A stretch of DNA of 24,000 nucleotides, from NCBI GenBank assembly GCA_045119835.1, contig JBGVED010000022.1:27646-51645 (forward strand). Reading direction: 5' to 3'. Of the stretch, positions 874-21,770 are shown one piece after another. Source of the stretch: Bacilli bacterium. GTDB taxonomy: Bacteria > Bacillota_I > Bacilli_A > RFN20 > DUOF01. How positions within the stretch are numbered: the stretch's first letter is position 1; every line of letters begins with the position of its first letter. The position numbers and the translations under genes were made by a program. Under the pieces are notes generated by a model, which saw only the letters and a program-made list of their open reading frames with translations, was not told the origin of the DNA and made no database searches.

Positions 874-882
874 GATATAAGA

Positions 883-3106: not shown

Positions 3107-3169
3107 TATTCCTTTCTTTATTAGACTAGCTTCTCGCTACTCTTTTATTACTTTTATTAATAGCAAATA

Positions 3170-3190
3170 AGACTACTGAAATAGTAGCCT
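3170..3190 (-). terminator. Putative intrinsic terminator after the 3193..4284 gene
   Basis: Minus-strand RNA: AGGCUACU-AUUUC-AGUAGUCU, an 8-bp stem with one G.U that pairs only in the minus sense. It is followed by UAUUUGCUAUU and starts 3 nt after the stop codon. Confidence 0.5.
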
Positions 3191-3192
3191 AT

Positions 3193-4284
3193 TTATATAA
3201 ATGGAACTCCAGGTATATTTGAGTTTCCATATCTATCTTTATATAATCCTCCACCGGAAATAACTCTAGAACCAACTGCAGCTGCTGCATATGTTCCAGC
3301 TATTCTTCCCCATCTTAAAGAACCATCATCATTAGTATGTGCAGATTCTAATGCGTCCCAGAAATTGCCGCCATCTCTAACGCCTTTATATGTATCACCT
3401 ATGCCTCCAAAATAATCATCTGCATAGTCTTTCCATGAACGACGATCATTTGGTCCGCCTTCTGGTCCACTATTTGTATTGGTGTTGCTGTTTGTGTTTT
3501 TATTTTTATTGCCACTACCTGATGAATCAGTACGTGGTCCGCCATCATCGCTAAAATCAAAATTGTTTTGATTTGGTCCATCGTCTATTCTTGTTGTTTT
3601 AATTTCGTCCATAAGGGGACCAATGTCTCCAGGTTTATTGTTTCTTAAACGTTCTTGCGCAGATTTATAATTGTCTCTTTTTATAAAATCATCAATATTT
3701 TGACGTGCAGCATTTTGTGTTTTTGTTAATGCTTCTCCTTTAGGCATTGGTACAGTTTCTAGATCTTTGATTTTTTCTAAATTATTTAATGCTTTATTTG
3801 TTGTATTTACTCCTCTTATTTCTTTTGCTTTCTCTAATGCTTGTTGGTAATTCCCTACAGCATCATATTTACTTGGAGCCGATGTATTTGTTTTTGCTAT
3901 TTTTTTAGCGTTATTCAATGCTGTATCATATTCATTAACTATTTCATTCAATGCTTTTGTTGTTGTATTTGAATTTGCTATTTTTTCAGCATTGTTTAAT
4001 GCTGTTCCATGTTTTTGCACAATATTGTTTATTGATTTGGTAGTTGTATTTGAATTTGCTATTTTCTTAGCGTTAGATAATGCTGTTCCATGTTCACTGA
4101 CGATTTCATTTAATGCTTTTGTTGCCGTATTTGAACCTGCTATTTTTTTAGCGTTATTTAATGCTGTACCATATTCACCTACGAATTTATTTAACGCTTT
4201 TGTAGTTGTTTTACTGTTATCAAGCACTTGACCTGTTATTTTAGCCATATTACGACCAGCTTTTATTACGTCATCTACTGCCAT
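3193..4284 (-). CDS. Structural protein with five 27-aa tandem repeats and a Gly/Asn/Asp-rich C-terminal half
   Basis: ORF-track ORF trimmed to the ATG at 4284 (MAVDDVIK). AGGAGGTG lies 6 nt upstream, and the track's GTG start sits inside that SD. Repeats are of the form SNTTTKALNEIVxEYGTALNNAKKIAx. Confidence 0.8.
   Translation of the reverse strand: MAVDDVIKAGRNMAKITGQVLDNSKTTTKALNKFVGEYGTALNNAKKIAGSNTATKALNEIVSEHGTALSNAKKIANSNTTTKSINNIVQKHGTALNNAEKIANSNTTTKALNEIVNEYDTALNNAKKIAKTNTSAPSKYDAVGNYQQALEKAKEIRGVNTTNKALNNLEKIKDLETVPMPKGEALTKTQNAARQNIDDFIKRDNYKSAQERLRNNKPGDIGPLMDEIKTTRIDDGPNQNNFDFSDDGGPRTDSSGSGNKNKNTNSNTNTNSGPEGGPNDRRSWKDYADDYFGGIGDTYKGVRDGGNFWDALESAHTNDDGSLRWGRIAGTYAAAAVGSRVISGGGLYKDRYGNSNIPGVPFI
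3811..4218 (-). repeat. Tandem 81-bp (27-aa) coding repeats, about 5 copies
   Basis: aa 23-158 of the 3193..4284 protein: four good copies plus one degenerate copy and a partial sixth. The same periodicity produces the antisense shadow ORF 3992..4231. Confidence 0.8.
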
Positions 4285-4296
4285 AATTATCACCTC

Positions 4297-4974
4297 CTAT
4301 TTCAAGTGATCTGGTTTTTCGTCTTCTACAAAGTCTATATCGAAGATACTATCAAGAATACTTCTTTCACTATTTCCATCGTCACCTTTCATTCTAGACT
4401 TCGCTTTACGAGTCGCCATCATAGTATCTAATATTCTCTCTTTGATTTTTAAATTTCTTTCATATAGTTCTTGTGTCTTACTTATTTCTTTTCTAAAATA
4501 ATCTACACCGCTCGATTCAGATGTCCCTATAAATTCTTCTGTTATAGCACTACCTTCTTGACTCATTAGTGCTAAACATCTTTCTATCATAATCTCTGCA
4601 TTTATTAGTTCTTTTACCATTGTCCAATCTGTATAACTACTTTCATCTAGTCCAAATTCTTCTGTATAATTAGCTAGCTTTTGTTCTATCATTGTAGTCT
4701 CAAGTACACATCGTTCTCCAACAGTATCTAATCCGTATTCTAATAAACCACATGTTGCCCCATATGGACAATTACATCCTTTACATACTATAGGTATTCT
4801 ACTGTATAATCCAGTCTTGGTACTTAACATGGTCATTGCTGCTTTCTTACTTTCAAGTGCGCCCTCACTATATCCCCATGGATTACCTACAGTATCCATC
4901 ATCGCTTCAAATGCTTTACGTTTCTCAATCGCTTTTTCTTTATCAGATTTGTCTATATTATTAGTTAATTCCAT
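4297..4974 (-). CDS. Hypothetical protein with a CxxCxC...C cluster (225 aa); weak small-terminase/DNA-binding possibility
   Basis: AAGGAGG lies 7 nt upstream of the ATG at 4974. Motif IPIVCKGCNCPYGATCG, a helical middle and a basic C-terminus (ATRKAKSRMKGDD). Function is not established from the sequence. Confidence 0.75.
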   Translation of the reverse strand: MELTNNIDKSDKEKAIEKRKAFEAMMDTVGNPWGYSEGALESKKAAMTMLSTKTGLYSRIPIVCKGCNCPYGATCGLLEYGLDTVGERCVLETTMIEQKLANYTEEFGLDESSYTDWTMVKELINAEIMIERCLALMSQEGSAITEEFIGTSESSGVDYFRKEISKTQELYERNLKIKERILDTMMATRKAKSRMKGDDGNSERSILDSIFDIDFVEDEKPDHLK

Positions 4975-4998
4975 AATTTTGCCTCCTTCTTTTATTTA

Positions 4999-5307
4999 TT
5001 ACTCTACTTCTTTCTTATACATTTCAAGTAGTTCTTCTAGTTTATAATCTGTTCCATTATTTAATATCTCTACACTTTCATATTCAAATACATATACATA
5101 AAATACATCGTTGGATCCAGATGTCTCTGCATATACTTCAATTCCGTCCAATCTAAATCTATCACATGATAAACTATGAATCTCTTCTATATACAAATGT
5201 GTTTTAAGTATTCCGCTTCTTATAAGTTCTTTTCCTTCTTGTTTTATTTCATATGTTATTAATCCTAATGTTTCTATTTCATCATTGATAATTATATCAA
5301 AATTCAT
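4999..5307 (-). CDS. Hypothetical protein (102 aa)
   Basis: ORF-track ORF trimmed to the ATG at 5307 (MNFDIII). GAGGTG SD lies 6 nt upstream, and the track's GTG start at 5316 lies inside that SD. Confidence 0.7.
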   Translation of the reverse strand: MNFDIIINDEIETLGLITYEIKQEGKELIRSGILKTHLYIEEIHSLSCDRFRLDGIEVYAETSGSNDVFYVYVFEYESVEILNNGTDYKLEELLEMYKKEVE

Positions 5308-5390
5308 TTTATTCACCTCATCTCTACTATATTACTATTTCTTCTTGTATAAAATTGTATACTGTATACGTATAGTACGTACAAACATCG

Positions 5391-5413
5391 TAAAAAAGAG
5401 CCCGAAGGCTCTT
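5391..5413 (-). terminator. Intrinsic terminator of the tail-fibre gene, C(UUCG)G tetraloop
   Basis: Minus-strand RNA: AAGAGCC-UUCG-GGCUCUU followed by UUUU, beginning 3 nt after the stop at 5416-5418. Confidence 0.75.
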
Positions 5414-5415
5414 AA

Positions 5416-8400
5416 TTATTTAAAAATTATTTTGATTATATTTTCATTAACTCTTTCTATTACTCTGTAAGTATCAAAACCTCTTTCACAAGCTGTTGCT
5501 TTTCCATTATCATCGCATTTACAGAAGCCATTAACCTCACAAGTTCCATCGTCATATACCGAAAGAACACCTAGCATACCAATAGCGTCCCATTCAGGTC
5601 TATCTGCTCTAGAAATATATTCTTTATTTGGATCATAATCTGGATTTACAGCAAATGATTCATATTCTACTTCTTTCTCTACAGTTACATCTAAAAGTTT
5701 TTTTCTTTCATCATAAGATAATTTTTCAAATTCTTCTTCTGATATTTCAATATCTTTAAATGATTTTGTTTCTTTTACTTCTACGATGTCTTTATAAACT
5801 TTTTTTATAGGTCTATTGAATTCGTCAGTTAAATATTGCCCATGCCAATTTAAATCATGATTACCTAAAACAGCAGGATGACCTGATACTATACCTAATA
5901 GGTATTCTCCTGATTTAGCTTTTCTTATTTTATTTCCATCTAAAGTAACAAAATAACCAACTCTATCTTCAGCATCAGGATTACCATCAATCCATTCAAA
6001 ATACTCAGCATAGTCCGCTCCTGATGTTGAATAGGCAGCTTTACCCATTACTTGACCTGCATATGATATAACACACGCATTAGATCTAGTTTCTGCATTA
6101 CCATAATTTCCTGTACCATTACCTACAGTAAATGCAGCACCATTTGTCCCAGAACTACTTCCTGACCAGTTAGTATCATTGTAATGTCCTATGACAAACA
6201 TATTTTCTCCATATGAACTAGTAGTTGTACCTACACCGAATACAGATGAATAAGCTCCATTTGCTTCTGCATAATATCCTGAAGCCAATGCGTAACTTGC
6301 TTTAGCTTTGGAATAATATCCTCCCAATGCAGTAGAATACAATCCAGTAGTTATTGCTTCGTAACCCATAGCGTAACTTCCGTTACTTTGTGCTTCTGCA
6401 CAATATCCTAAAGCTACTGTATTATTAGCTATTGCTTTCGGAGAATATCCAAAAGCGACTCCACAATAACCTAAATCTCTATTTGGTTCACCATTACTGT
6501 TTTCTCCTCCTGTATCTGCGTAGTAACCTCCACATATACTATAGTATCCAAATGCTTTCGAATAACGTCCTAATGCTGTACCTTTATCCCATCCTTCACA
6601 ACCGTATCCAAGAGAATTTCCTCCATTATGACATTCGGCATAACTACCAATAGCATTACCATAAGATCCAGTACAATTAGCATAATTACCAATTATGATA
6701 TTATTATTGATACCACTTCCTGTTAAATTATTACCTGTACCTATAACTACGAGATTTGATGCATTATCGTTTGTAGTAGTACCAACTTTATTATTTTCAC
6801 CTATTGCAAAAACATATCCAGAATAAATTTCATTAAGATCACCTATTACTAATGAGCCATAACCATGTACTTTATTATTTCTACCTATTGCAACGCCTTC
6901 ATTTCCATCTACTACGTTTTGATCTCCTATTGCAGCAGATATAGCTCCTGAGACTGTATTGTTATATCCTAAATTAACTTTACTACCTTTATTACTATAA
7001 TTATCTCCACTATATTTTAATTCACTAGCTGTTGCAGTTAAATATGTACTAGGTACATAATTGCTATGTGTATGGTTTCCTGCAGCTGCATTACCTGCAC
7101 CTGTTCCTATTGTTAAATGTGTACCATGTGATGCAGGAGCAGCACCTAATTCTTCAAGATCTGGTTTGTGTAAATTTGTATAGAATCGATTCCAAGCTCC
7201 CCAGCTAGTACCTTCACCTTTTCTAAAATACATTCTACCGTCATCTAAAGTAGCGAATTGAGTTGCTTTACCGCCAGACCAAGATGTCGTATCGCCCCAT
7301 TGTTGATAAGTTATGACACCTGCGAAATTTTTACCTGAATTTGGAAGTCCTACAGTTGAAGTAGATTTAAATTCTGGATAAATACCTCTAGTGGTATATG
7401 TATTTGGTGCGCTATTCGCATTTCTTGTATCCATTGAAGTTATATAATCATGTATATGAGAACTTATAGTGCCTGTCAACTTATTTTCTATTTCAGTTTT
7501 AGTTATATCACTATTTTTTTGAGCATTTGATGGAGCATGAGCTGATTGACTATGATTGTAAGCAGTATTACCATAGTCTCCTCTATATGCAGTAGACGAT
7601 GTAGTACCTAAACTTAAATGTGTACCATGTGTACTAGCAGCCGCTCCTATAGAACTTGGTGTAATATTAATTGTTTTAGCAGCAGAACCATTAAATGTAA
7701 ATAAATTTGTCCCTTCAGTAGAACCACTATTAAGTTTAATAGTCAAATTAGTATTGACTTTGTTGGCACTAGTAGCTGCTCCTCCAGCAGAACTTGAGCC
7801 AGCATAGTTATGTGTATGATTACCAGCTGCCGCATTACTTGCACCAGTTCCTATAGTTAAATGCGTTCCATGTGACTTAGCAGCATACTTGCTAGATAAA
7901 GCTGTTCCGTTTTCAGTAAACGAAGTTGCAGTAACATTTCCTGTTACAGTTAATTTAGCATCAGTTAGTGAAGATGCATCTAATGTCATTGCATTAAATA
8001 ATGTTCCACCACTTGGAGTAAATCTCCATCTCCACATATCGTTTTGTGTTGCATCATCTGCTAAGTTAAAGTCAAAATAAGTATTAGTGCCATCTACAGT
8101 TGTACTTATAGAACCAGAATCAGAACCTTCGGTCGCAAATGCTAAACCTGTTATTCCAGTTAAAGATGTATGATTATGAGATGCAGGAGCATAAGTGCCA
8201 CTATGATTATGGCTAGTTATGGTACCAGTAAGTTTAGCTTCTATTTCAGCTTTTGTTATGTCACTATTTTTTTGTGCGTTGCTAGGAGCATGTGCTGCTT
8301 GTGAATGATTATATGCCGTATTACCGTAATCTCCTCTATACGCAGTACTAGATGTAGTACCTAAAGTTAAATGCGTTCCATGTGACTTAGCAGCATATTT

Positions 8401-8937
8401 ATCAGCTAAAGCAGTTCCCCCTTCTGTAAACGAAGTAGCTGATATAGTTCCGCTTTCATTAAAAGTCATCTTATTAGTAAAAGTAGTTGAACCTGTTCTT
8501 ATATCAAAATATAAGCTACCTCCACGATCTTGTACTCTCCAGTCAGTATAGCTATCACTATCTGATCCTCTATAGAATATTAATGAAGGACTGTCATTAG
8601 AGCCTGATGCGTATAATTTTAAATCTCCTGTAATATTTCCTCCACTTAACGGTAAATAGCTATGTGTATGAGTAGTTATATTTCCAGTTAATTTAGCTTC
8701 TATTTCAGCTTTTGTTATATCACTGTTCTTTTGTGCGTTACTAGGAGCATGAGCAGATTGACTATGTTGATAAGCTGTATTTCCGTAATCACCTCTAAAT
8801 GCATTTCCAGAACCTGTACCTAAAGTTAAATGGGTACCATGTGAACTATTTGCTTTTTTTGCCAATTCCGTATCTATATATTGTTTCGTTCTTGTCAAGG
8901 ACGTATTTAATGCATCTTTTAAACTTAATTTTGCCAT
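5416..8937 (-). CDS. Mosaic tail fibre/tail spike (1173 aa) with a C-terminal Peptidase_G2-type intramolecular-chaperone domain
   Basis: AAAGGAG lies 7 nt upstream of the ATG. There are three 61-aa modules SHGTHLTLGT..AYRGDYGNTAYNHSQSAHAPSNAQKNSDITKAEIEAKLTG..HxH and six HxH motifs. aa ~655-905 carry Gly/Tyr/Asn repeats like YadA-head/hep_Hag repeats (GYxAxAxGxxS). aa 974-982 read ADYAEYFEW, followed by DGNP..DRVGYFVTLDG (DNA 5419-6020), as in phi29-type pre-neck appendage C-termini. Confidence 0.9.
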   Translation of the reverse strand: MAKLSLKDALNTSLTRTKQYIDTELAKKANSSHGTHLTLGTGSGNAFRGDYGNTAYQHSQSAHAPSNAQKNSDITKAEIEAKLTGNITTHTHSYLPLSGGNITGDLKLYASGSNDSPSLIFYRGSDSDSYTDWRVQDRGGSLYFDIRTGSTTFTNKMTFNESGTISATSFTEGGTALADKYAAKSHGTHLTLGTTSSTAYRGDYGNTAYNHSQAAHAPSNAQKNSDITKAEIEAKLTGTITSHNHSGTYAPASHNHTSLTGITGLAFATEGSDSGSISTTVDGTNTYFDFNLADDATQNDMWRWRFTPSGGTLFNAMTLDASSLTDAKLTVTGNVTATSFTENGTALSSKYAAKSHGTHLTIGTGASNAAAGNHTHNYAGSSSAGGAATSANKVNTNLTIKLNSGSTEGTNLFTFNGSAAKTINITPSSIGAAASTHGTHLSLGTTSSTAYRGDYGNTAYNHSQSAHAPSNAQKNSDITKTEIENKLTGTISSHIHDYITSMDTRNANSAPNTYTTRGIYPEFKSTSTVGLPNSGKNFAGVITYQQWGDTTSWSGGKATQFATLDDGRMYFRKGEGTSWGAWNRFYTNLHKPDLEELGAAPASHGTHLTIGTGAGNAAAGNHTHSNYVPSTYLTATASELKYSGDNYSNKGSKVNLGYNNTVSGAISAAIGDQNVVDGNEGVAIGRNNKVHGYGSLVIGDLNEIYSGYVFAIGENNKVGTTTNDNASNLVVIGTGNNLTGSGINNNIIIGNYANCTGSYGNAIGSYAECHNGGNSLGYGCEGWDKGTALGRYSKAFGYYSICGGYYADTGGENSNGEPNRDLGYCGVAFGYSPKAIANNTVALGYCAEAQSNGSYAMGYEAITTGLYSTALGGYYSKAKASYALASGYYAEANGAYSSVFGVGTTTSSYGENMFVIGHYNDTNWSGSSSGTNGAAFTVGNGTGNYGNAETRSNACVISYAGQVMGKAAYSTSGADYAEYFEWIDGNPDAEDRVGYFVTLDGNKIRKAKSGEYLLGIVSGHPAVLGNHDLNWHGQYLTDEFNRPIKKVYKDIVEVKETKSFKDIEISEEEFEKLSYDERKKLLDVTVEKEVEYESFAVNPDYDPNKEYISRADRPEWDAIGMLGVLSVYDDGTCEVNGFCKCDDNGKATACERGFDTYRVIERVNENIIKIIFK
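7450..8844 (-). repeat. Three dispersed ~183-bp near-identical coding repeats inside the fibre gene
   Basis: Long copies at 8662-8844 (aa 32-92), 8203-8385 (aa 185-245) and 7450-7632 (aa 436-496). Shorter related copies (KSHGTHLTIGTGA.NAAAGNHTH) at 7804-7878 and 7057-7131. Identical DNA runs occur, for example AAATGCGTTCCATGTGACTTAGCAGCATA at 7859-7887 and 8368-8396. Confidence 0.85.
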
Positions 8938-9056: not shown

Positions 9057-9235
9057 ATATTTTATATAGCTTTGTGAAAAAATTAACAATCCTATATAGA
9101 GGATAAAAATTTATATTATTTTATATAGAATTTCACTGGAAAAGTTTTCCTATATAGGAGGTGAAAAATTTGAATTTTTTATTCGGGATTACAGATTATG
9201 GAAGATCTATATATAGAACTAAAATTTTGAATTTT
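9057..9235. repeat. Three tandem ~58-bp AT-rich repeats in the divergent region
   Basis: TTTTATATAG at 9060 and 9119. CCTATATAG at 9091 and 9149, plus CTATATATAG at 9207. AAAAATTT-type tracts at 9104, 9164 and 9220. TTTGAATTTTTTAT at 9169 and 9226. Spacings are 57-59 bp. Confidence 0.55.
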
Positions 9236-9260: not shown

Positions 9261-9352
9261 TAGTGTGTTAAGGCTCTATTTTGGAGCCCCCACCCTGTTA
9301 AGGTCTGGGACACACTAGGAGAGAATGATCCGTAGGGTGATTATTGCTCTCC
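9261..9352 (+). promoter_or_regulatory. GC-rich structured 5' leader of the 9412 gene
   Basis: Closing stem TAGTGTGT (9261-9268)/ACACACTA (9310-9317) encloses GGCTC/GAGCC (9272-9276/9284-9288) and CCCA/TGGG (9289-9292/9306-9309). A second domain is GGAGAG/CTCTCC (9318-9323/9347-9352). TGTTAAGG occurs twice. Confidence 0.45.
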
Positions 9353-10122: not shown

Positions 10123-10627
10123 TCCGTCAGTCCTGAGTAAGACTATAAACTACTCCCCTATATATATAGGGTATGTCTAATGCAGCCACCTATATGGTGC
10201 AGGTCACAAGCCCTGGTAAATGCAGAGTGGACATAGGAGTTAATGCTTCTCCTCTATCAAAAAGCTAACCTAACCAATTTAAAATGAGTCGGGCTGCCAA
10301 GGCCCCTTAAACTTGGCCAGTTGTCAGTACTGATAGTATGAACTGACTGGGTTTTGTTCTCAATTCTTTCCCATCAAAAAAGGAATTGTCTGCCTAATCA
10401 GGACCGACCAAGTCCCTAAACTGGCGGGTGTATAGCATTAGGCTATCCCCTATAACAAATGATAAAGGTGCATGAGATAGCTCTTCGGTTAGGGCTGGCA
10501 CTGTTCTTGGTTAGGTACCAGTACTACTACGATAGGTTGTGCCAGTGCCATACCGTCAATACATAAACCACATTGACATAGGGTTTAATGTGCTTATGTA
10601 TAAAATAAACTATATAGGGGTGTTTAT
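10123..10627 (+). ncRNA. Candidate large (~500 nt) structured non-coding RNA / GC-rich ORF-free island
   Basis: No ORF of 60 aa or more on either strand, and clearly more GC-rich than the flanking genes. Local helices: 10156-10171 (CCCTAT/ATAGGG), 10172-10177/10230-10235, 10294-10320 (CTGCCAAG/CTTGGCCAG with one bulge), 10324-10328/10342-10346 (TCAGT/ACTGA), 10392-10398/10437-10443 (GCCTAAT/ATTAGGC) enclosing GGAC/GTCC, 10496-10503/10543-10550 (TGGCACTG/CAGTGCCA), 10555-10560/10572-10577 (GTCAAT/ATTGAC). Strand inferred from neighbouring genes. Confidence 0.4.
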
Positions 10628-11416
10628 ATGTATAACAAATTAAGATCTGTAATATTATTAGCTTATAAAAAAGAGATATGTAGAAGAGAAATACTAGATT
10701 GTGATGCTAGAGAAGACATAGAAAATGATATAAATGATATCATAGAATCTAGTTTACGCAATTATGTAGATCAAAGTGAACATTTCTCTAGACCTAAACG
10801 ATTAGTATATGACGATACTTGTGCTCCTATTAATGCTTATGGTTATTATATGCATATGATAGATCTAATAACATTAGATGAAAATTTAAGATGTTTTTAT
10901 TCAATGGCTTCTCTTAATTTTCTTGAAACATTAAAAGTAAGCGTTAATACATTCTTACATGAACATCGTCATTGTCATCAATACAAAACTAACATGGATA
11001 TATTAAACCATCCACTATCTAATAAAAATAATCCTGAGTATGTATATGCAAATAGTCCTCTAGAATTAGATGCTAATAAATATGCAGATATGTATGAATT
11101 AGAAGCAGTAGAATGGATTATAGATAGTATAGAATCATGGTTTGATGTTAAATACACTAAAGATATAGTAGAAGCTGATATTAGAGATGATGTAAGAGCA
11201 GCTATAGAAAACTACTATAATAATTTACCTGAAGAAGAAATAGAAAATAGTTTAGCTGAAATGGAAGAAGAATTAGAAGAATACGAAATGACACAAGCTA
11301 TGTTATCTATGCTAGATGATGATGAAGAAGATGAAATAGAAGAAATAACAATAGATCCAGATGAAGACATAAAAGAATGGTTTAGACAATATGAAGAACA
11401 ATTTGGTGAATGGTAG
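10628..11416 (+). CDS. ImmA/IrrE-like (M78-type) HExxH zinc metallopeptidase with a hyper-acidic C-terminal tail (262 aa)
   Basis: AGGGGTG SD lies 5 nt upstream. HEHRH at aa 111-115, followed 31 aa later by E-L-D-A-N-K-Y-A, matching the family's HExxH...ExxANxFA signature. aa ~195-262 are Glu/Asp-rich and end in EEQFGEW. Confidence 0.6.
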   Translation: MYNKLRSVILLAYKKEICRREILDCDAREDIENDINDIIESSLRNYVDQSEHFSRPKRLVYDDTCAPINAYGYYMHMIDLITLDENLRCFYSMASLNFLETLKVSVNTFLHEHRHCHQYKTNMDILNHPLSNKNNPEYVYANSPLELDANKYADMYELEAVEWIIDSIESWFDVKYTKDIVEADIRDDVRAAIENYYNNLPEEEIENSLAEMEEELEEYEMTQAMLSMLDDDEEDEIEEITIDPDEDIKEWFRQYEEQFGEW

Positions 11417-11422
11417 TATATA

Positions 11423-11449
11423 GGGCTCATAATAATATGGGCCCTTTTT
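11423..11449 (+). terminator. Intrinsic terminator
   Basis: GGGCTCATA-ATAA-TATGGGCCC (9 bp with one G.U) followed by TTTTT, 7 nt after the stop. Confidence 0.75.
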
Positions 11450-11460
11450 ATGTTTTAAAT

Positions 11461-11519
11461 AATCTGTCCAGGTGTAGATGCCTGCTGATGAGTCTTTGCA
11501 AATTAAGACGAAACAGATT
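11461..11519 (+). promoter_or_regulatory. Structured 5' leader (three-way-junction-like) of the 11542 gene
   Basis: Closing stem AATCTGT/ACAGATT (11461-11467/11513-11519) encloses CAGG/CCTG (11469-11472/11481-11484) and GTCTT/AAGAC (11492-11496/11505-11509). Confidence 0.4.
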
Positions 11520-11541
11520 AAATATATTGGGAGGTTTTACT

Positions 11542-12039
11542 ATGAGTAAAATATATGTAAAAGATTATTATCAAATGAATAAAGGATTATTTGAAAACTT
11601 TGAAGATAAAAAATTCTTTCATGGGTTTGGCGCATTCTTTGCGTCAAAAACACCATTAGAAAGAAAATTCACAAGATTAATAGAAGATACAAATGAAGAA
11701 TTCGAAATATGTACATCAACTAAAGCTTGCGGTATGAGTGGAGTCATAGTGCAAGGTAGAGTATTATTAGCTGCAAATTCTGATTTATGTTCAGGAATAA
11801 ATGCTAATGGTAGATACTTTGATTCTAAACAATTAGATGAATTAGTATTCGACTTTAATGATTTAGAATTATGGGAGGATGATTGCGAAGAAAATAATGA
11901 AATCATCCTAGATCATGTACAAGTAGTAGGTATATGGTATTGTGAAGATGCTAACAACAATGTTAAAGCTTTATGTAAACGTTTAGCTGAATTATATAAT
12001 CTACCATTAATAAATGCTGGTCTAAGCATATTTAATTAA
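11542..12039 (+). CDS. Paralog-family protein 2 (165 aa), FHG...CTSTK...NEII motif set
   Basis: GGGAGG lies 7 nt upstream of the ATG at 11542. The track's upstream extension from 11410 overlaps the terminator and leader. Alignable with the 9412 protein: FFHGF / ICTSTKACGMSGVIVQGRVLLAANSDLCSGINANGRYFD / NEIILDH...LAELYNL. Confidence 0.8.
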   Translation: MSKIYVKDYYQMNKGLFENFEDKKFFHGFGAFFASKTPLERKFTRLIEDTNEEFEICTSTKACGMSGVIVQGRVLLAANSDLCSGINANGRYFDSKQLDELVFDFNDLELWEDDCEENNEIILDHVQVVGIWYCEDANNNVKALCKRLAELYNLPLINAGLSIFN

Positions 12040-12077: not shown

Positions 12078-12167
12078 ATATTTCTATAGTTTTTTTATTT
12101 TTTTTACTATTTGTTCAAACGAGAGCGCACCTAAGTACTCTCTATTTTTACATATAACTAAAGATAA
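12078..12167 (+). promoter_or_regulatory. Cassette intergenic repeat, copy 1 (promoter-like block)
   Basis: ATTTCTATAGTTTTTTTATTTTTTTTAC...CGAGAGCGCACCT...TTTACATATAACTAAAGATAAA. Shared almost verbatim with 12799-12887 and partly with 13580-13650. CGAGAGCGC core at 12120-12128. Confidence 0.5.
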
Positions 12168-12798: not shown

Positions 12799-12887
12799 AT
12801 ATTTCTATAGTTTTTTTATTTTTTTTACATGTTGTACACTCGAGAGCGCACCTTATTGTGCTCTCATTTACATATAACTAATGATAA
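12799..12887 (+). promoter_or_regulatory. Cassette intergenic repeat, copy 2
   Basis: Same block as copy 1. CGAGAGCGC at 12841-12849, inside hairpin GAGAGC/GCTCTC. TTTACATATAACTAATGATAAA follows. Confidence 0.5.
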
Positions 12888-12927: not shown

Positions 12928-13557
12928 ATGAGTAAAAAAGATATAGAAAGATTAAAAAATATGAAGAAACAAAATAATATGAAGAATCAAATGACTAGAC
13001 AAGAAAAAATACAAAGTATAGAAAATTTAGAAAAGAAATTAGCTGACATGTTTAATCAACGTAGTGAAGAAGAATTAAGAAGTATAATAGAAAGACACAA
13101 AAGAAATCAATCAGTTATATATTTTAACGATCATGACAAAGCATTTCAATTTTTAAGAAATAATGATTATAGTGTAGACATATTAGGTACAGTAAGTGAA
13201 GTTAGCAAAATAAGAAATGTAAATGGTGTAAGAACTATGTGTCTAGAAAATATATATATGGTAGCTGTTGAAAATGATAACGTTTGTATATGCGTTGACC
13301 ATATATGGATGAATGAAGAATTATCATGGACAATACTAAAGAATATATTGAAATATCCTGGTAAGGCTGGATATGAAATATTTATCAATAGATTAAAGCC
13401 AATAAAATATACAGAAGAATATTACAACAATGGAGTTGAAAAACACAGATATCAATTAACACAATTAACTAAAAAGAAAAGAATTGCTTGGGTTCAAAAA
13501 GTACAAAGAGCCAATGGAATAACAATGTCAGTAGAAAAAATAGCAGAAATATTATAG
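12928..13557 (+). CDS. Hypothetical protein, basic coiled N-terminus (209 aa)
   Basis: AAGGGGA SD lies 7 nt upstream. No recognised motif. Confidence 0.8.
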   Translation: MSKKDIERLKNMKKQNNMKNQMTRQEKIQSIENLEKKLADMFNQRSEEELRSIIERHKRNQSVIYFNDHDKAFQFLRNNDYSVDILGTVSEVSKIRNVNGVRTMCLENIYMVAVENDNVCICVDHIWMNEELSWTILKNILKYPGKAGYEIFINRLKPIKYTEEYYNNGVEKHRYQLTQLTKKKRIAWVQKVQRANGITMSVEKIAEIL

Positions 13558-13584
13558 GGTCCTTTATTTTAAGGACTCTTTTTC
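13558..13584 (+). terminator. Intrinsic terminator
   Basis: GGTCCTT-TATTTT-AAGGACT (7 bp with one G.U) followed by CTTTTTC. Confidence 0.6.
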
Positions 13585-13650
13585 TATTTTTATAGTTTTT
13601 TTATTTTTTTTACATGGTGCGCACTCGAGAGCGCATCTAATTACATATTC
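13580..13650 (+). promoter_or_regulatory. Cassette intergenic repeat, copy 3 (diverged 3' half)
   Basis: TTTTTATAGTTTTTTTATTTTTTTTACA, then the near-palindrome GCGCACTCGAGAGCGC (CGAGAGCGC at 13626-13634), then TTACATATTCA. Confidence 0.45.
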
Positions 13651-13755
13651 ATGGACCAATCCATGTGAGGTCCTTAAATAACATCATGGAACCCGATCCA
13701 GTTTTTAATGTGGGGGTTGTCTGTCATCCCATCCCAAAAACAGTCAAATACCAAT

Positions 13756-13806
13756 ATGGGGTTAGGGTTGAACCTCGGTCAAAAACCCATGTGTAGTCTT
13801 ACACAT
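13756..13806 (+). promoter_or_regulatory. Conserved two-hairpin leader motif, copy 1 (upstream of the polymerase gene)
   Basis: ATGGGGTTA-GGGTT-GAACCTCGGTCAAA-AACCC-ATGTG-TAGTCTTA-CACAT. Paralogous to 15942-15992, with compensatory changes in both stems. AAGGAGGG SD and the ATG follow within 25 nt. Confidence 0.6.
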
Positions 13807-13828
13807 TAGCTCAAGGAGGGCAAATATC

Positions 13829-15808
13829 ATGTCAATGAATAACAGTAAATTAAGAGGAATATCAAAAGGATTTGGAAGCAACAAATTACTAAGACAAAAG
13901 ATAAACGAAGCTATATATGCAACAAGTGTAGTAGTTAACAAAATAGAATTAAGCTACAACAAAGAAACAAAAGAATATGAAATAACTAAAGACGTTAGAG
14001 GATTAGCAGTATGGAATCCTGTATTTGAAAGATTTGGCTTAAACAGAGACTATCAAAAGATGAATGTAACAGTAGAAGCAGAAGATGACAATGGAAACAC
14101 AACTAAACGTAAAGTTAATATAGACGGTGAATCAGTAGTTATGTGTGACAGCATAATGTTCATCAAATGTGATAACCTTAAACAAATAGCTAAAATGGAC
14201 GAAGAAGGATTCGTATATAATGGTGAATTATATAGAGTACTAGGTGCTTCTCCTTCTCAACAAAAACACGCAGTTAAAGCTTATTTTAAAGTGACTAATG
14301 AATTCCCAACTGAAAAACATGCATTCTTAGCTATGGACGAAGTAAGTGGTTTTGTCTTTACTAAGGGTATATTCAGAAACAAAGTATCTGGACAAAAAGT
14401 TATTGCTGCCAATACAAGATTTGGTAACTATTTAACAGGTATGCAATGCTTAGCTAAAATAGACTTATCAAAAGATTATATAGTTATAGTTGACGGAAGC
14501 ATACCAGGAGCATATGATTTTGACGAACAAACTAGAGAAGAAATGGAAGCTAAAGGACTTGAATTTGACTGCAACATCAATGATGGAGCTTTACACTTTG
14601 GTGTTCCAACAATACAAGAAATAGGACAAAATGTAGGTGTTAGTTTAACAGAAGAAGATGCATTAAGAGTTGCTTTACAATCAAGAATAACTTATATAAC
14701 AGCTAAAGTTATGGGTGACTGTATGCCAGAAAATCAATTATTACAAATGGCAGCACTTCCTAATGCAGTTAAATATGGAAACACAAACGGAAGATTAATG
14801 TTAGTATGCGATACAGATGGAGCAAAAGCTTTAGCAGTTCCTGAATTAGAAAACGGTACAGCTGTATTAGATGTATACGTTATGGCTCAAGCTGCGGTTT
14901 CTGAACCAAAAAGTTCAGGACAACATTTAATCAAATATATGGCAGTTGCTCCAGAAAGAACATTAGAATTCATAAACACAGTGACTACTGAAAATTTAGA
15001 AGCATATGTTATGAATCAAGTAGCAGAAGGTAAAGGTTCTACAGTTGTTGACGATATAAAAAGAGCTCTTGGAGAAGATGCTTTCACAACTAAGATATTT
15101 GTAGAAGGTATATACAGAGATGCTTTCAAGTTTGTACAATCAGCTATAGCTAAAACTAAATTATCTATAGAAGCAGTATATAGCCATATGACATTTGATA
15201 GTACTTTTGTATTAACTAAAGGATTAATCAGAGGTATACTAGACATAACTAATGAAGGTTTTGTACAAGCATTCTGTCCAGACGTATTAAGAAAATATGC
15301 TAAAGAAATAGCTGCTATAGAAAATGATCCAACATTAACAGAAAGAGAAAAAGAAGTAAAATTATTTAACTTACTATCTGGTACAGTTATAAAATACCCT
15401 TCTGCAGGAACAAAAGAATTTGAAATCATAGTTTATCAAACTATGAAACAAATAGAAACATCTATAAAATCTAGAGTTGCAGAACTAGGATTAGACAATA
15501 AGGATGCAGAAGCTATGGTAGATATGTTATTAGCATATTTTGAAAATAGACCATATGGAACAACTACTTTTGCACCATTAAACGCATTAAAAAACAAGTT
15601 GGCGGGAGCCGACTGTGATTTTGATGCTACTATGACAGATATGAGTGAATTAAAACACATCCTTATAGAGAAAAGATTAGAAGAACAAGAAAAACAACCT
15701 GGATTTATGGGGGATTGTACTTTTATCAGCTATAAAGATGTACCAAGAACAGAAGATAAAAATGTTGTTGAAGATACTTTAGGAAACACTGATGATATAG
15801 AATGGTAG
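13829..15808 (+). CDS. Compact two-barrel RNA polymerase, RdRP/QDE-1/YonO-like (659 aa)
   Basis: The CDS itself is near-certain (strong SD, terminator). The function call rests on an ordered motif series: GELYRVLGASPSQQKHAVKAYF (aa 132-153), ANTRFGN (194-200), NDGALHFG (251-258), LQSRITYITAKV (283-294), IKYPSAGTKEFEII (521-534), LAGADCDFD (591-599; DxDxD, DNA 15611-15625). C-terminal tail EDTLGNTDDIEW. Confidence 0.6.
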   Translation: MSMNNSKLRGISKGFGSNKLLRQKINEAIYATSVVVNKIELSYNKETKEYEITKDVRGLAVWNPVFERFGLNRDYQKMNVTVEAEDDNGNTTKRKVNIDGESVVMCDSIMFIKCDNLKQIAKMDEEGFVYNGELYRVLGASPSQQKHAVKAYFKVTNEFPTEKHAFLAMDEVSGFVFTKGIFRNKVSGQKVIAANTRFGNYLTGMQCLAKIDLSKDYIVIVDGSIPGAYDFDEQTREEMEAKGLEFDCNINDGALHFGVPTIQEIGQNVGVSLTEEDALRVALQSRITYITAKVMGDCMPENQLLQMAALPNAVKYGNTNGRLMLVCDTDGAKALAVPELENGTAVLDVYVMAQAAVSEPKSSGQHLIKYMAVAPERTLEFINTVTTENLEAYVMNQVAEGKGSTVVDDIKRALGEDAFTTKIFVEGIYRDAFKFVQSAIAKTKLSIEAVYSHMTFDSTFVLTKGLIRGILDITNEGFVQAFCPDVLRKYAKEIAAIENDPTLTEREKEVKLFNLLSGTVIKYPSAGTKEFEIIVYQTMKQIETSIKSRVAELGLDNKDAEAMVDMLLAYFENRPYGTTTFAPLNALKNKLAGADCDFDATMTDMSELKHILIEKRLEEQEKQPGFMGDCTFISYKDVPRTEDKNVVEDTLGNTDDIEW

Positions 15809-15815: not shown

Positions 15816-15842
15816 GGGCTCAGTTTATGCTGGGCCCTTTTT
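15816..15842 (+). terminator. Intrinsic terminator (paralogous to the one at 11423)
   Basis: GGGCTCAG-TTTATG-CTGGGCCC (8 bp with one G.U) followed by TTTTT. Confidence 0.75.
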
Positions 15843-15870: not shown

Positions 15871-15941
15871 ATGGGAGCTAAATAATCGGCAGCCTCCTCG
15901 TTGGCGCTCCTGGATATCCAACCAATGCCGTAAATACTATT

Positions 15942-15992
15942 ATGGGGTTAGGGCTGAACCTCGGTCAAAAGCCCGTGCATAGTCTTATGCAC
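15942..15992 (+). promoter_or_regulatory. Conserved two-hairpin leader motif, copy 2
   Basis: ATGGGGTTA-GGGCT-GAACCTCGGTCAAA-AGCCC-GTGCA-TAGTCTTA-TGCAC, followed by the AGGAGGG SD and the ATG at 16018. Confidence 0.6.
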
Positions 15993-16017: not shown

Positions 16018-17655
16018 ATGAAATCAACAAACTCATTAAACAATGTAAAAATGAACAGAAGAGATACTTTATTACAAAAAGTATATGACGGAACTATAAG
16101 CTTAAAAGATTTAAGACAAATGGAAAATATAGACATGAACCAATGTCAATATCCAATTAGGGTTTTACAAAAAGTGTTTAACCCTATATCACTTGTAGGG
16201 CCTACTACAACTGTAGTAGGTAACATCATAAATATAGATGTAGATGACCCTCAAGGATTTGAAGAATTCAAAGATGCTCTATTATTACTAAACGATGAAG
16301 GTACTCATACACCATATGGAGAATCAATATGGAAAATAGGTAAAAACGTATTCTGTGGTTATAAATTCTATAATCATAAATTCTACGTTTATTATCAAGT
16401 AACTAATGCTGAAATGGCTGAAATCGAAAGAAAAATAAAAGGTATGAGAAGAAGCGAAATGACAGTGGAAGATGCTAAACAATTACAAAAAGATTTAGAC
16501 TCTGTACTTCGTGGATGGCAAGAATCTAGTATTGACGTTCACAAAGATGAAAAGAAATCATTCTCATATGATTTCAGACACTTCTTTAAGAAAGTAGATG
16601 TAGTGTCTAACTATTGTAAAACACATGCCGATAAAATAGAAATGAATACAAAAGAAATGTTTAAAGACCATAAGAAAGTTGATTCTAAAGAATTCAAAAT
16701 AACATTACCAAGCGATAATCCATTAGGTGACGATGTAGTATGTAAAGACTTAATAGGTAGAGTAACAGAAGAAATAAGAAAAGCTGCTGAAACATTCTTT
16801 AACGGCGACTTAAAAGATATATATGCAATGAGTAATATGGATGCTTTCTTACCATTTGTAGGTTATGCTCAAGCTAATCCAGAATTAGCATTATTCATAA
16901 AAGATATATATCAAATATGCTACAACGCTATAGGAAAAGAAACAATAGAAAAAGAACAATATGCTTTACTAAGAAATGTTGTATATTCTAAAGCTTTAGA
17001 TCTAGGTGTTGAATTCCAAGATGTAGTTAAAGTAGCTATAGACTGTGCAATGGTATCTGTTAAAGAAACTAAAGAAGGTATAGAAGTTACAAACTCTGAC
17101 GTTAACAGATTTAAACTATATCCAATAGTTAATATGTTTGGTAAAGAGTTTAAAGTAGCTATGACTAACCAACCTTATATGGAGACAATAGCAACAGAAG
17201 ATGATTTCTTAGTATTTGACAGATTTATAAAAGATAACGAAGAAATAGAATTCGTTAATGGTAAATCAACTGATGATAAATTAGTTATGATAAACGATTT
17301 CACAGGAACAGCTGTAGAATGTAATGGTGTATTAGTAGCTGAAACTAATGTTTATGCATTTGAAGAAGTAAAAGCTATGATAGTATTCAAAACATTCGAC
17401 GCAAAAGCAACTCCAAAACAAGCTATATATGATAAAACTGGTGCTTTATTAGACAGCTTAATTGAAGAAAACAATTTTGCAGGTATGAGAGTAACAGGTA
17501 AAAATAACAATGGTTTAAGAAACAACACTAACTTAATAGGTGTATTTAGAAGTACTTGTGCATTTGTTAAAGATGAAATAGTTGAACCAACAGATATAAT
17601 AGCATATGATCCAAAACCTGCTAGCCAAAAACTATTCTTAATTATCTGTAAATAA
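16018..17655 (+). CDS. Hypothetical 545-aa protein sharing its leader motif with the polymerase gene
   Basis: ORF-track ORF trimmed to the ATG at 16018 (AGGAGGG 9 nt upstream). No motif recognised. Same leader motif as the polymerase gene. Confidence 0.85.
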   Translation: MKSTNSLNNVKMNRRDTLLQKVYDGTISLKDLRQMENIDMNQCQYPIRVLQKVFNPISLVGPTTTVVGNIINIDVDDPQGFEEFKDALLLLNDEGTHTPYGESIWKIGKNVFCGYKFYNHKFYVYYQVTNAEMAEIERKIKGMRRSEMTVEDAKQLQKDLDSVLRGWQESSIDVHKDEKKSFSYDFRHFFKKVDVVSNYCKTHADKIEMNTKEMFKDHKKVDSKEFKITLPSDNPLGDDVVCKDLIGRVTEEIRKAAETFFNGDLKDIYAMSNMDAFLPFVGYAQANPELALFIKDIYQICYNAIGKETIEKEQYALLRNVVYSKALDLGVEFQDVVKVAIDCAMVSVKETKEGIEVTNSDVNRFKLYPIVNMFGKEFKVAMTNQPYMETIATEDDFLVFDRFIKDNEEIEFVNGKSTDDKLVMINDFTGTAVECNGVLVAETNVYAFEEVKAMIVFKTFDAKATPKQAIYDKTGALLDSLIEENNFAGMRVTGKNNNGLRNNTNLIGVFRSTCAFVKDEIVEPTDIIAYDPKPASQKLFLIICK

Positions 17656-17670
17656 TTATACAGAACCAGG

Positions 17671-17705
17671 GAGCATCAACCAGTTTAGGTTGGTGCTCTT
17701 CTATT
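17671..17705 (+). terminator. Intrinsic terminator
   Basis: GAGCATCAACC-AGTTTA-GGTTGGTGCTC (11 bp with one G.U) followed by TTCTATT. Confidence 0.7.
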
Positions 17706-18488: not shown

Positions 18489-19211
18489 ATGAAAACTACT
18501 ATAATGCAAATAATAAAATCAAACGAAAGATACAATGTTATACCAAAACTATATGAAATATTAACTGATAAATATGGCAAATTAACAATTGCTGGTGGAG
18601 CAATTATTGATTGCTTCTATGACAAACCATTTTATGATGTTGATTGTTTTATTAACATCAAAGATTTAAAACCAGAATGGAAACAAAAACTACACATAAG
18701 AAAAGATACTCATGTACTTGATGTATTAAGAGACAATATAGATGGCTTTGACATTGACATAGTTGTAATAGACTATTCAGTAGCAAAACACATCCGTCGT
18801 TTTGACCAACGCTTCAAGCAAGCTTGGTATGATGACAAAGGTCTTCACATGACTAAAGGAGCAGCAAAAGATATAACTGACAATAAAGTAAGAGTAGGTG
18901 TTTTAAATGGCCCTGCTATATACTTTAGAGTAATCCGTTCAGCTAGAAAATATGGTATGCATCTTGATGATACAGACATGTGGCTAATGGAAAACTTTAT
19001 GTCTTGCCTAGATAAATTAAGACTACCTAAGAAATATCAACACATGAAAAGAGAATTCTTACCTTATAAGAATCCTGACAAATTACTAGGAGAAATAGTA
19101 TATAAATACTCACAAAACTACTGGAATACTAAATTATTATACGCACCAAGCTGGACAACATTAAAATTATTCTTATTACCAGCAATAATAAAACACAACA
19201 GAAATAAATAG
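18489..19211 (+). CDS. Pol-beta-superfamily nucleotidyltransferase (CCA-adding/poly(A)-polymerase-like head), 240 aa
   Basis: IAGGAIIDCFYDKPFYDVDCFI fits hG[GS]-x(9-13)-Dh[DE]h. A further acidic strand is FDIDIVVID. RRFDQRF is reminiscent of the RRDFT motif of class II CCA-adding enzymes. Confidence 0.55.
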   Translation: MKTTIMQIIKSNERYNVIPKLYEILTDKYGKLTIAGGAIIDCFYDKPFYDVDCFINIKDLKPEWKQKLHIRKDTHVLDVLRDNIDGFDIDIVVIDYSVAKHIRRFDQRFKQAWYDDKGLHMTKGAAKDITDNKVRVGVLNGPAIYFRVIRSARKYGMHLDDTDMWLMENFMSCLDKLRLPKKYQHMKREFLPYKNPDKLLGEIVYKYSQNYWNTKLLYAPSWTTLKLFLLPAIIKHNRNK

Positions 19212-21133: not shown

Positions 21134-21770
21134 GGAGGCAGGGGCACATACTTTCACACGAGAGCGCCAAAATTTCCCCCCTTCGGGGGAGATGGCTCCA
21201 CCCTTCGGGCTCGCCCCTCACGGGTCAGGCTCCGCTCCGCTACGCGGAACCTTCGGTTCCACGTGCTCCGCTCCGCAAAAGACAAAACCCAGCTCCGCTA
21301 CGCTGCGCGAAACCTTCGGTTTCACTCAGCTTCGCTCCGCAAAAGACAAAAGCATCGCTCACTACGTTCGCTCACACAAAGGCGTTTGTAATGAGTGTGT
21401 GCTCGCATGCGCTCGCACAAAAGACAAAAACCACAAAAGACAAAGCCTTGCACAAAGGCGTGCTTTATGGTGTTACGCCCACATGTACTGCCCCCTTCGG
21501 GGCCAGTGCCATGGGGCTAACGCTGCACAGGGCACTCAAACAACGAGTGCCTTGCACAAAGGCGTGTTTTATGATAGAGCATGCTCACTGCGTTCGCACA
21601 AAAGCGTTCGTAGTGCGTCTAGCGCGCTTGCGCTTGCACAAAGGCGTGTTCTATGGAAATACGTCTTGCTTATGCAGTCAGTATGTATGGCATTAACGAG
21701 TGCCATAACTGGTCGTGTATACGACATTGACGAGCGCCACACAAAGGCGTGATTTATGATTTTAAAAAAA
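21134..21770 (+). other. GC-rich repeat- and hairpin-dense non-coding island (structured RNA array, promoter/terminator array or replication origin)
   Basis: CACAAAGGCGTG at 21451, 21555, 21637 and 21740 (plus CACAAAGGCGTT at 21375), each followed by NTT(T/C)TATG(G/A). AAAAGACAAA at 21277, 21341, 21419 and 21435. CCTTCGG-centred hairpins at 21177-21189, 21246-21260, 21309-21323 and 21487-21507. Further hairpins at 21686-21707 and 21712-21725. CGAGAGCGC core at 21159-21167. Ends in an A/T tract (21755-21775). Confidence 0.5.

Follow-up and report, generated by a model that had tools for sequence, protein, structure and literature searches.

A two-barrel polymerase gene of a large phage, probably encoding the catalytic subunit of a split RNA polymerase

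Introduction

Single-chain phage RNA polymerases (RNAPs) of the two-barrel type, among them YonO, crAss gp66, and P23-45 gp64/gp96, are the simplest relatives of the cellular RNAPs and are used to find out which parts of the enzyme are essential. Here we describe a candidate of this kind in a stretch of 24,000 nucleotides (nt), hereafter the window, from a Bacilli bacterium assembly (GCA_045119835.1, contig JBGVED010000022.1, positions 27,646 to 51,645 of the forward strand; coordinates below are those of the window). An open reading frame (ORF) on its plus strand had been proposed, in a sequence-only reading, to encode a minimal and unusually compact single-subunit enzyme of the lineage that includes eukaryote-type RNA-dependent RNA polymerases (RdRPs), QDE-1, YonO, and crAss gp66. 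The question that the locus raises is whether this 659-aa protein is a two-barrel polymerase and, if so, whether it is a whole one. The reading that we favor, to which we would give a probability of about 0.7, is that the ORF encodes the catalytic subunit of a split phage DNA-dependent two-barrel RNAP, likely a non-virion one, the remainder of which is encoded by a 545-aa gene.

Results and Discussion

Conservation of the 659-Residue Protein

The ORF and the parts of its product on which the argument turns are the following.

13829 to 15808, plus strand: polymerase ORF, 659 aa, ATG start (ORF call)
13813 to 13820, plus strand: strong Shine-Dalgarno sequence, AAGGAGGG, 5′ of the polymerase ORF
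14390 to 14434, plus strand: helix 188–202 with the invariant R197 in NTRxGNY (AF2 secondary structure, invariance across 48 sequences)
14441 to 14893, plus strand: first barrel region, approximately residues 205–355, with D252-G253, Q284-x-R286, K293, and K333 (invariant columns)
15173 to 15640, plus strand: second barrel region, approximately residues 449–604, with K522-x-P524 and the catalytic loop (strand layout of the model, invariant columns)
15611 to 15625, plus strand: codons of the metal-binding triad D595-C-D597-F-D599 (invariant in both alignments)
15701 to 15805, plus strand: C-terminal tail, residues 625–659, PGFMGxCxFISYK and an acidic peptide ending in DDIEW (conserved)

The motif strings on which the proposal had been founded are all present in the protein and in the order claimed, namely GELYRVLGASPSQQK..AYF (residues 131–152), ANTRFGN (193–199), NDGALHFG (251–258), LQSRITYITAKV (283–294), IKYPSAGTKEFEII (521–534), and LAGADCDFD (591–599), with the chain ending in DDIEW. 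Homologs of the polymerase number ∼200 in metagenome assemblies. An alignment of 23 close homologs, 47–88% identical to the window protein, leaves the motif cores invariant: S141-P-S143..K146, N195-T-R197-x-G-N-Y, N251-D-G253, Q284-x-R286..K293, K522-x-P524-S-A, and A592-G-x-D595-x-D597-F-D599. When distant relatives were added by a profile search of 1.8 billion representative proteins, the resulting alignment of 48 sequences had a mean column identity of 18% and just 15 invariant columns, which are M1 and 14 others that all fall in or between the claimed motifs (R197, D252, G253, Q284, R286, K293, K333, K522, P524, A592, G593, D595, D597, and D599). Because these core residues are invariant across close and distant homologs alike, the motif series goes far beyond chance.

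Assignment to the RdRP-Like Branch

An AF2 (AlphaFold) model of the 659-aa protein, built on the family alignment (pLDDT 81.1, pTM 0.78), consists of a β-rich N-terminal domain, a helix like the auxiliary helix of the first barrel (D1AH), a first double-psi β-barrel (DPBB1), a helical connector leading to DPBB2, which holds the Asp triad, and a short tail at the C terminus. When this model was searched against the PDB with Foldseek, a check that had been suggested together with the original proposal, the significant matches were 11 chains belonging only to plant RDR2 and fungal QDE-1 (E 4.3e-10 to 1e-6, probability 1.00, 619–691 aligned columns), with 9–11% identity in the structural alignments. 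The next match was P23-45 gp64 (E 0.11, probability 0.51, 546 columns), and bacterial β′ chains were weak (E ∼1). Among the viral protein models of BFVD the top matches were proteins of uncultured gut phages, of which two carry an RdRP annotation (E 4e-14 to 6e-11), and the collection includes a 563-aa phage protein with the same fold and the same annotation. A crAss-like virion RNAP protein followed at E 6e-3, and the phi14:2 match was not significant (E 1.1).

Profile evidence came by way of the relatives. The window protein itself stays below any threshold of the Pfam RdRP family (PF05183), but 3 of the 23 homologs match it, P0011 alone above the threshold. This protein, 56% identical to that of the window, scores 28.4 bits against a cutoff of 23.8 over profile positions 57–196, and the match spans the SPS, NTR, and NDG motifs, that is, the first three (SPS and the first barrel region). 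In the distant relative P0168 (23.7 bits) it is the triad, GSDFDGDD, that aligns to the RdRP profile, at positions 414–447 of 582.

The pattern of invariant residues points in the same direction. The active site of QDE-1 comprises R671 in the auxiliary helix, D709 in barrel 1, Q736-x-R738, K743, K767, a Pro-Gate loop, and D1007/D1009/D1011, the last of which are essential (PMC9508822). The window protein presents R197, D252, Q284-x-R286, K293, K333, K522-x-P524, and D595/597/599 in the QDE-1 order, the equivalences being drawn by order and pattern and not by superposition. We propose on these grounds that helix 188–202 with R197 may be the equivalent of the QDE-1 DPBB1 auxiliary helix with R671 and that K522-x-P524 may form a Pro-Gate-like loop. 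The Q-x-R pair is typical of RdRPs of the RNA interference (RNAi) type, in which it replaces a lysine of the multisubunit RNAPs (PMC9508822); in barrel 1 of the present family it is Q284/R286, invariant in the 48 sequences. Given the Pfam matches in homologs, the RDR2/QDE-1 fold, and the QDE-1 active-site pattern, we place the 659-aa protein among the two-barrel polymerases, in their RdRP-like branch. The lineage named in the sequence-only reading is thus borne out as far as RdRP and QDE-1 are concerned, whereas membership in the YonO, gp66, or gp64 family was not demonstrated.

A Probable Second Subunit Gene Downstream of the Asp Triad

The 60 residues that follow D599 contain one strand, a conserved 14-residue helix (609–622), and a disordered tail. 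In QDE-1 the bridge helix (∼1082–1091) and the trigger loop (1102–1136) come after the triad (PMC9508822), and in crAss-like gp66 the same elements (1529–1559 and 1598–1636) lie 165–270 residues past the DFDID at 1361–1365. The chain continues for 286 residues past the triad in gp64 (DYDGD at 326 of 616), for 300 in YonO (DNDGD at 535 of 839), and for 391 in QDE-1. Across the superfamily the post-triad length is bimodal, 25–93 residues in proteins of 600–920 aa versus 563–792 residues in proteins of 1274–1802 aa. The 659-aa protein does not combine bridge helix and trigger loop with its triad in the same polypeptide. Two features of the gene that follows are needed here.

16018 to 17655, plus strand: probable second subunit gene (the partner), 545 aa by the gene caller (downstream synteny, co-duplication, fusion)
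16522 to 16545, plus strand: codons of the partner motif E169-S-S-I172-D173-x-x-K176, candidate trigger-loop tip (invariant in 26 sequences)

The partner gene lies directly downstream on the same strand, across a gap of 180–430 nt, in 33 of 35 informative loci; the other two are one contig that ends too early and one fused form. Polymerase and partner are tandemly duplicated as a unit in four loci (L016, L022, L023, and L036). The two are also found fused, in relatives of 1300–1900 aa: among 17 long relatives the partner profile matches 8 (E 1e-9 to 1e-26), always just C-terminal of the polymerase part. In P0190 (1335 aa) the polymerase part spans 25–683, with DLDGD at 671, and the partner part spans 778–1236 (E 2e-20); in P0188 the corresponding parts are 399–1057 and 1151–1616. 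The order within the fusions is that of the genes, polymerase and then partner. A paralogous origin of the partner from the polymerase was rejected, as BLASTP found no similarity between the two.

Because the chain ends 60 residues past the triad, and because the partner is syntenic, co-duplicated, and fused in relatives, we conclude that an enzyme of ∼1200 aa is split here and that the 659-aa ORF encodes its catalytic subunit. The idea of a minimal single-subunit enzyme does not survive the comparison of 60 post-triad residues with the 286–391 of the reference polymerases, taken together with the partner; nor is the protein unusually compact, since P23-45 gp64, an active and complete two-barrel RNAP, has 616 aa. 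The size of the ORF that carries DxDxD is not the size of the enzyme, and a tempting misreading is corrected here.

Most likely, to judge from the gene arrangement and a single motif, the partner supplies the bridge helix, the trigger loop, and the clamp's C-terminal part. Its motif ES(S)IDxxK forms a loop after a conserved 21-residue helix (150–170) and is kept in 8 of 8 fused relatives. The trigger loop of QDE-1 contacts the incoming nucleoside triphosphate (NTP) through V1115-D1116-x-x-K1119 (PMC9508822), and the I-D-x-x-K loop of the partner is a candidate counterpart that resembles it at the level of pattern. The AF2 model of the partner has a pLDDT of 85 and a pTM of 0.55. Searches of the partner against YonO, gp64, and PDB profiles gave no match, and the fused relatives have no match in Pfam, so the RdRP profile could not be extended into the partner region.

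The tail of the first subunit may be what holds the two together. Among the 23 homologs PGFMGxCxFISYK is conserved and is followed by an acidic stretch with a hydrophobic last residue, and residues 630–659 are predicted to be disordered (pLDDT <50). In the fused relatives the polymerase profile ends at position 645 at the latest, and a linker connects it to the partner module. The tail is probably a tether or docking segment to the second subunit; of the docking-type peptide that had been claimed for this protein, the conserved peptide is real, and docking is the role that we attach to it with this reservation.

We note that relatives with tandem pairs stand at ∼45% identity and that in one such locus, L023, partner-A (536–2173) is followed by RNAP-B (2340–4277) and partner-B (4539–6170). 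Tandem pairs would be two paralogous split polymerases, recalling the virion/non-virion pairs of other phages.

Proposed Mechanism and Alternatives

In the reading that we favor, the enzyme would belong to a branch shared with the RNAi polymerases QDE-1 and RDR2 and with diverse single-chain RNAPs of phages and plasmids. D595/D597/D599 of barrel 2 and D252 of barrel 1 would bind two Mg2+ ions, and the RNA 3′ end and the phosphates of the NTP would be held by R197, Q284-x-R286, K293, and K333. The 545-aa product would complete the enzyme with the bridge helix, the trigger loop, and parts of the clamp, tethered by the conserved tail of subunit 1. The whole would act as a non-virion polymerase, produced after infection and transcribing one class of phage genes from phage-specific promoters.

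Several observations weigh against this reading. The window protein has no match in Pfam even at E ≤ 10 and nothing usable in PHROGs or among PDB sequences, so that its assignment cannot be checked by a simple domain search; the family profiles likewise found no match among PDB sequences, and the homolog P0011 found no relevant one. TM-scores to RdRPs are moderate (0.41–0.46), and the catalytic loop is of low confidence in the AF2 model. As to the split, helix 609–622 might be a short substitute for the bridge helix. The fused forms sit on short contigs, for which reason their orthology is unproven, and fusion indicates a functional linkage and does not prove which elements the partner carries. 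The fold search with the partner model against the PDB gave nothing significant, the best match being a Thermus β′ chain at E 1.0 with several further β′ chains among the noise; what places bridge helix and trigger loop in the partner is therefore the fusion, the synteny, and a motif pattern.

One may accordingly ask whether the 659-aa protein is, after all, a complete minimal RNAP and its 545-aa neighbor an accessory protein, such as a factor for promoter specificity or processivity, that is fused in some relatives. A single chain does hold both barrels and every invariant catalytic residue, the partner's fold matches no polymerase element significantly, and the conserved helix past the triad might serve as a short bridge helix. 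We hold this to be unlikely: each validated single-chain enzyme examined has at least 286 post-triad residues against 60 here, published structural comparisons treat bridge helix and trigger loop as core and conserved, the fusion order equals the gene order in a strictly syntenic and co-duplicated pair, and the trigger-loop-like I-D-x-x-K motif lies in the partner. A different doubt concerns the template. The nearest solved structures and the sole Pfam family matched are eukaryote-type RdRPs, and Q-x-R is a signature typical of RNAi-related RdRPs (PMC9508822), as would suit an RNA-dependent RNA polymerase working on phage or host transcripts (e.g., to make double-stranded or antisense RNA). 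Such a function seems improbable to us, given that the characterized phage members YonO, crAss-like gp66, and P23-45 gp64/gp96 are reported to transcribe phage DNA, that QDE-1 is also DNA-dependent (PMC9508822), and that the gene resides in a ∼238-kb double-stranded DNA (dsDNA) phage amid genes flanked by conserved promoter-like blocks. As the characterized phage members are all DNA-dependent and QDE-1 has both activities, DNA-dependent transcription is, by analogy, the most likely function.

We see very little chance that the protein is instead a replication primase or another non-transcriptional nucleotidyl transferase, brought to the replisome by its acidic tail. No replication genes were recognized within the window, and the acidic, aromatic-ended tail resembles the C-terminal tips of SSB and T7 gp2.5, which recruit partners; both points may be counted in favor of that idea. 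It is without positive evidence, however, the downstream partner is a simpler target for the tail, and the known phage relatives are all transcriptases.

Relation to Known Polymerases

The kind of enzyme described here is already known, since phages of Faecalibacterium, Lactococcus, and actinobacteria are described as having putative RNAPs of the RdRP-like kind (10.1101/842583) and the jumbo phages 0305phi8-36 and c-st as having YonO-like enzymes (PMC7824862), and the P23-45 paper recognizes 23 families of two-barrel RNAPs (alignments in the supplement to PMC10770324). The split form is the new variant. QDE-1 and RDR2 share with the window protein the order of active-site residues, the Q-x-R pair, and the DxDxD triad and are its best fold matches in the PDB. 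They are, however, single chains of 1100–1400 aa that carry bridge helix and trigger loop after the triad, whereas the window chain ends after the triad, with a second gene next to it, and belongs to a dsDNA phage and not to RNAi.

Among the phage enzymes, gp64 of the Thermus phage P23-45 (616 aa, PDB 8F72) is, like the window protein, a compact phage two-barrel RNAP encoded by a non-structural gene. Its activity has been shown, it has been crystallized, it is non-virion, and it falls into the same major clade, which unites polymerases of phages, plasmids, and RNAi; it is the product of a pre-early gene and transcribes the early and middle genes (P23-45 paper). Unlike the window protein, it is complete in one chain, with 286 residues beyond its DYDGD at 326, and a comparison with the family gave no match in hhalign and the weak one in Foldseek (E 0.11). 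YonO of SPbeta (839 aa) is likewise a phage two-barrel RNAP of the RdRP-like branch, DNA-dependent and single-chain (PMC5467207, PMC7824862), and differs in having 300 residues past DNDGD in the same chain. The 48-sequence profile aligned to YonO weakly in hhalign (probability 5%, E 0.007) in a plausible motif register, with YRVLGASPS opposite YVYFTSSAGQ and NDGA opposite TDGC; the 23-sequence profile gave nothing meaningful against YonO. The crAss-like phi14:2 gp66 (2180 aa) also unites both barrels in a single polypeptide, and its closest structural relative is QDE-1, a likeness that the window protein shares. It is, by contrast, a giant, virion-packaged protein from a transcription/structural block, while the window gene is small (659 aa), lies in a non-structural arm opposite the tail-fiber genes, and is split after the triad.

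Large RNAP subunits are split in other lineages as well, as in cyanobacterial γ/β′ and archaeal A′/A″. The split β/β′ fragments of jumbo phages are similar to the window pair in that a catalytic polypeptide is divided over adjacent genes, with the triad barrel on one piece and the later elements on another (PMC7824862). In the split multisubunit RNAPs the two barrels are on different subunits, whereas here both barrels stay together and the post-triad module alone is separate. The new family thus presents a natural cut directly past the catalytic loop, and the split, fused, and duplicated forms among its relatives provide a ready system for asking what the bridge-helix/trigger-loop module contributes and how the halves dock. 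We judge the interest for specialists in transcription evolution to be moderate to good.

Phage Context and Distribution

A contig of 237,947 bp encodes an identical 659-aa protein, and the contigs that carry relatives measure 87–287 kb, from which we conclude that the carriers of this gene are large phages. No relative was found by DNA search or tblastn in ∼50,700 GenBank phage records, SPbeta included, nor did the distant relative P0153 match any GenBank phage; IMG/VR viral contigs also held no relatives. Within 185,000 species genomes, comprising isolates and metagenome-assembled genomes (MAGs), the sole representative is one 6-kb contig of a fecal “Bacilli” MAG. A family that is common in gut metagenomes and absent from GenBank phages and IMG/VR means that a group of large phages with a transcription machinery of its own has gone unannotated.

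The minus-strand block 1–8937 encodes tail-fiber-like proteins, with Peptidase_G2 and YadA-head domains and a PHROG match to a pre-neck appendage. The polymerase pair occupies the plus-strand arm that diverges from this block, where it adjoins the divergent intergenic region and lies amid mostly small genes without functional annotation, a position similar to that of gp64 and other non-virion polymerase genes. Since both genes lie in the non-structural arm, a non-virion enzyme is most likely. The following neighbors were noted.

5416 to 8937, minus strand: 1172-aa tail-fiber/pre-neck-appendage-like protein with YadA-head repeats and a Peptidase_G2 intramolecular-chaperone domain
3802 to 4206, in a gene neighboring the tail-fiber gene: 81-nt tandem repeats
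1 to 470, in a gene neighboring the tail-fiber gene: 33-nt periodic repeats
18489 to 19211, plus strand: 240-aa protein three genes past the partner, weakly matching a nucleotidyltransferase PHROG (phrog_1614, E 7e-6); in relatives a gene of ∼239 aa adjoins the partner gene

Promoter-Like Blocks and Terminator-Like Hairpins

The arm had been said to contain repeat blocks that are not sigma-A promoters, together with hairpin motifs, and both are borne out. Sigma-70 promoters were rejected as the source of the intergenic repeats, consensus sites being not enriched (88 vs 79 ± 10 expected). Hairpins followed by a T-run are enriched (17 vs 5.3 ± 2.3) and occur after nearly every gene; in relatives such a hairpin is followed by a ribozyme within a few nucleotides. 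Conserved blocks of a non-sigma-70 kind exist as well.

13556 to 13579, plus strand: GC-rich hairpin and T-run after the upstream gene (terminator-like enrichment)
15816 to 15837, plus strand: equivalent hairpin 3′ of the polymerase gene
17669 to 17700, plus strand: equivalent hairpin 3′ of the partner gene
13587 to 13613, plus strand: T-rich 27-nt block 5′ of the polymerase gene, TTTTTATAGTTTTTTTATTTTTTTTAC, candidate promoter
9091 to 9217, 10157 to 10170, 10611, and 11417: TATATAGR sites, candidate second promoter or operator motif

The T-rich block (TTTCTATAGTTTTTTTATTTTTTTTAC) occurs in three identical copies against 0 expected, at 12081–12107, 12802–12828, and 13587–13613 on the plus strand, each followed by a GAGAGCGCA hairpin and located 5′ of three consecutive genes of which the polymerase gene is the last. 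It is kept 5′ of the polymerase gene in L001–3, L007, L008, and L029 and is a candidate promoter of one gene class, as far as its sequence and placement indicate. TATATAGR is found 17 times against 5.3 ± 2.4 expected, with its copies clustered where the plus-strand arm begins, in the divergent intergenic region. Host-independent transcription by the phage polymerase is plausible; the blocks themselves do not reveal which polymerase reads them.

Predicted Ribozymes and Leader Elements

In relatives a common leader of ∼130 nt, composed of a ribozyme and a pseudoknot, stands 5′ of both the polymerase and the partner gene. The two subunit genes of the window share only the pseudoknot half of it.

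15873 to 15930, plus strand: hepatitis delta virus (HDV)-like ribozyme with minimal P4, between the subunit genes (predicted cleavage 15872/15873)
13637 to 13754, plus strand: unclassified conserved leader element, ∼110 nt (alignment of copies)
13757 to 13788, plus strand: putative H-type pseudoknot, UGGGG-UUA-GGGUU-GAA-CCUCG-GUCAAA-AACCC (repeat D16), just 5′ of the polymerase Shine-Dalgarno sequence
15943 to 15974, plus strand: second copy of the pseudoknot, 5′ of the partner gene
10174 to 10233, plus strand: type-P1 twister match (63.8 bits, E 1e-12, just under the gathering cutoff of 67.2)
11461 to 11519, plus strand: type III hammerhead ribozyme (49.2 bits vs gathering 48.5)

The complete ribozyme copy at 15873–15930 lies after the hairpin 15816–15837. 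Related loci (L001, L007, and L009–L044) contain 46 copies of the HDV-like ribozyme, all on the coding strand. A lax Rfam scan gave a full-length but weak alignment to RF00094, at 16.1 bits versus a gathering cutoff of 50 and below every Rfam threshold. Covariation supports the structure. With 29 distinct copies placed on the double pseudoknot P1/P2/P3/P1.1, pairing holds in 99.4% of cells, compared with 26–47% in slid controls, and compensatory changes are seen at 9 of the 16 pairs; the diagnostic P1.1 pair covaries (C-G in 16 copies, U-A in 13), all 28 of 28 copies have the cleavage-site G·U, and column 57, the C in J4/2, is invariant. The 5′ half of the leader is thus a predicted HDV-like self-cleaving ribozyme. 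Minimal HDV-like (“theta”) ribozymes of gut phages occur next to phage tRNAs (PMC10879173). They are like the copy described here in the HDV double pseudoknot, the reduced P4, and a gut-type phage sequence, and differ in that they adjoin tRNAs, whereas the window ribozymes are in the mRNA 5′ leaders of polymerase genes.

In the window and its closest relatives the element at 13637–13754 takes the exact slot of the HDV-like ribozyme 5′ of the polymerase gene. Copies are present in L007 (3792–3924), L008 (342–456), and L045/L046 (7497–7622 in L045). Its variable middle contains a covarying stem, and it may form a pseudoknot between a hairpin loop and downstream sequence. Rfam gave no match at E ≤ 10 on the leader 5′ of the polymerase gene, returning only noise, and none on L001. 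We regard the element as a candidate for an alternative, possibly new, ribozyme or regulatory leader. In the 3′ half of the leader, 36 copies of the pseudoknot show many different complementary S2 pairs with the same geometry, as enumerated without a shuffled control. Its architecture recalls what we take to be that of the preQ1-I class. The preQ1-I riboswitch and the pistol and twister ribozymes were considered for this half and set aside, no Rfam model supporting them.

The twister match is located within a 500-nt noncoding stretch 5′ of the gene at 10628, and the hammerhead just past a terminator-like hairpin (11422–11445) and 5′ of the likely true start (∼11542) of the ORF 11410–12039. The occurrence of HDV-like, twister, and hammerhead ribozymes in the same arm suggests that its transcripts may be cleaved into mRNAs of one cistron each, with a ribozyme fold at the start, and leaders so rich in ribozymes suggest a coupling of transcription with RNA processing in these phages. 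A wider picture, which we offer tentatively and think doubtful as a whole, would have a hitherto undescribed group of gut jumbo phages of ∼170–290 kb run its own transcription with a two-gene RdRP-type two-barrel polymerase, some members having two paralogous pairs, perhaps for different temporal classes, and process the mRNA of each polymerase by interchangeable leader ribozymes, the element at 13637–13754 being a new self-cleaving class.

Two further observations concern RNA-rich parts of the locus. A motif GAGCCCCCACCC..TAAGGTCT is common to the window (∼9277–9305, plus strand) and to the L035 leader (∼910–940) and may be another conserved RNA element. In the stretch 21200–21770, which is locally GC-rich (46%), a CACAAAGGCGTG hairpin unit recurs in at least four copies, together with GCTCCGCTCCGC repeats overlapping weak ORFs; the stretch may be an iteron/origin-like or RNA-rich region.

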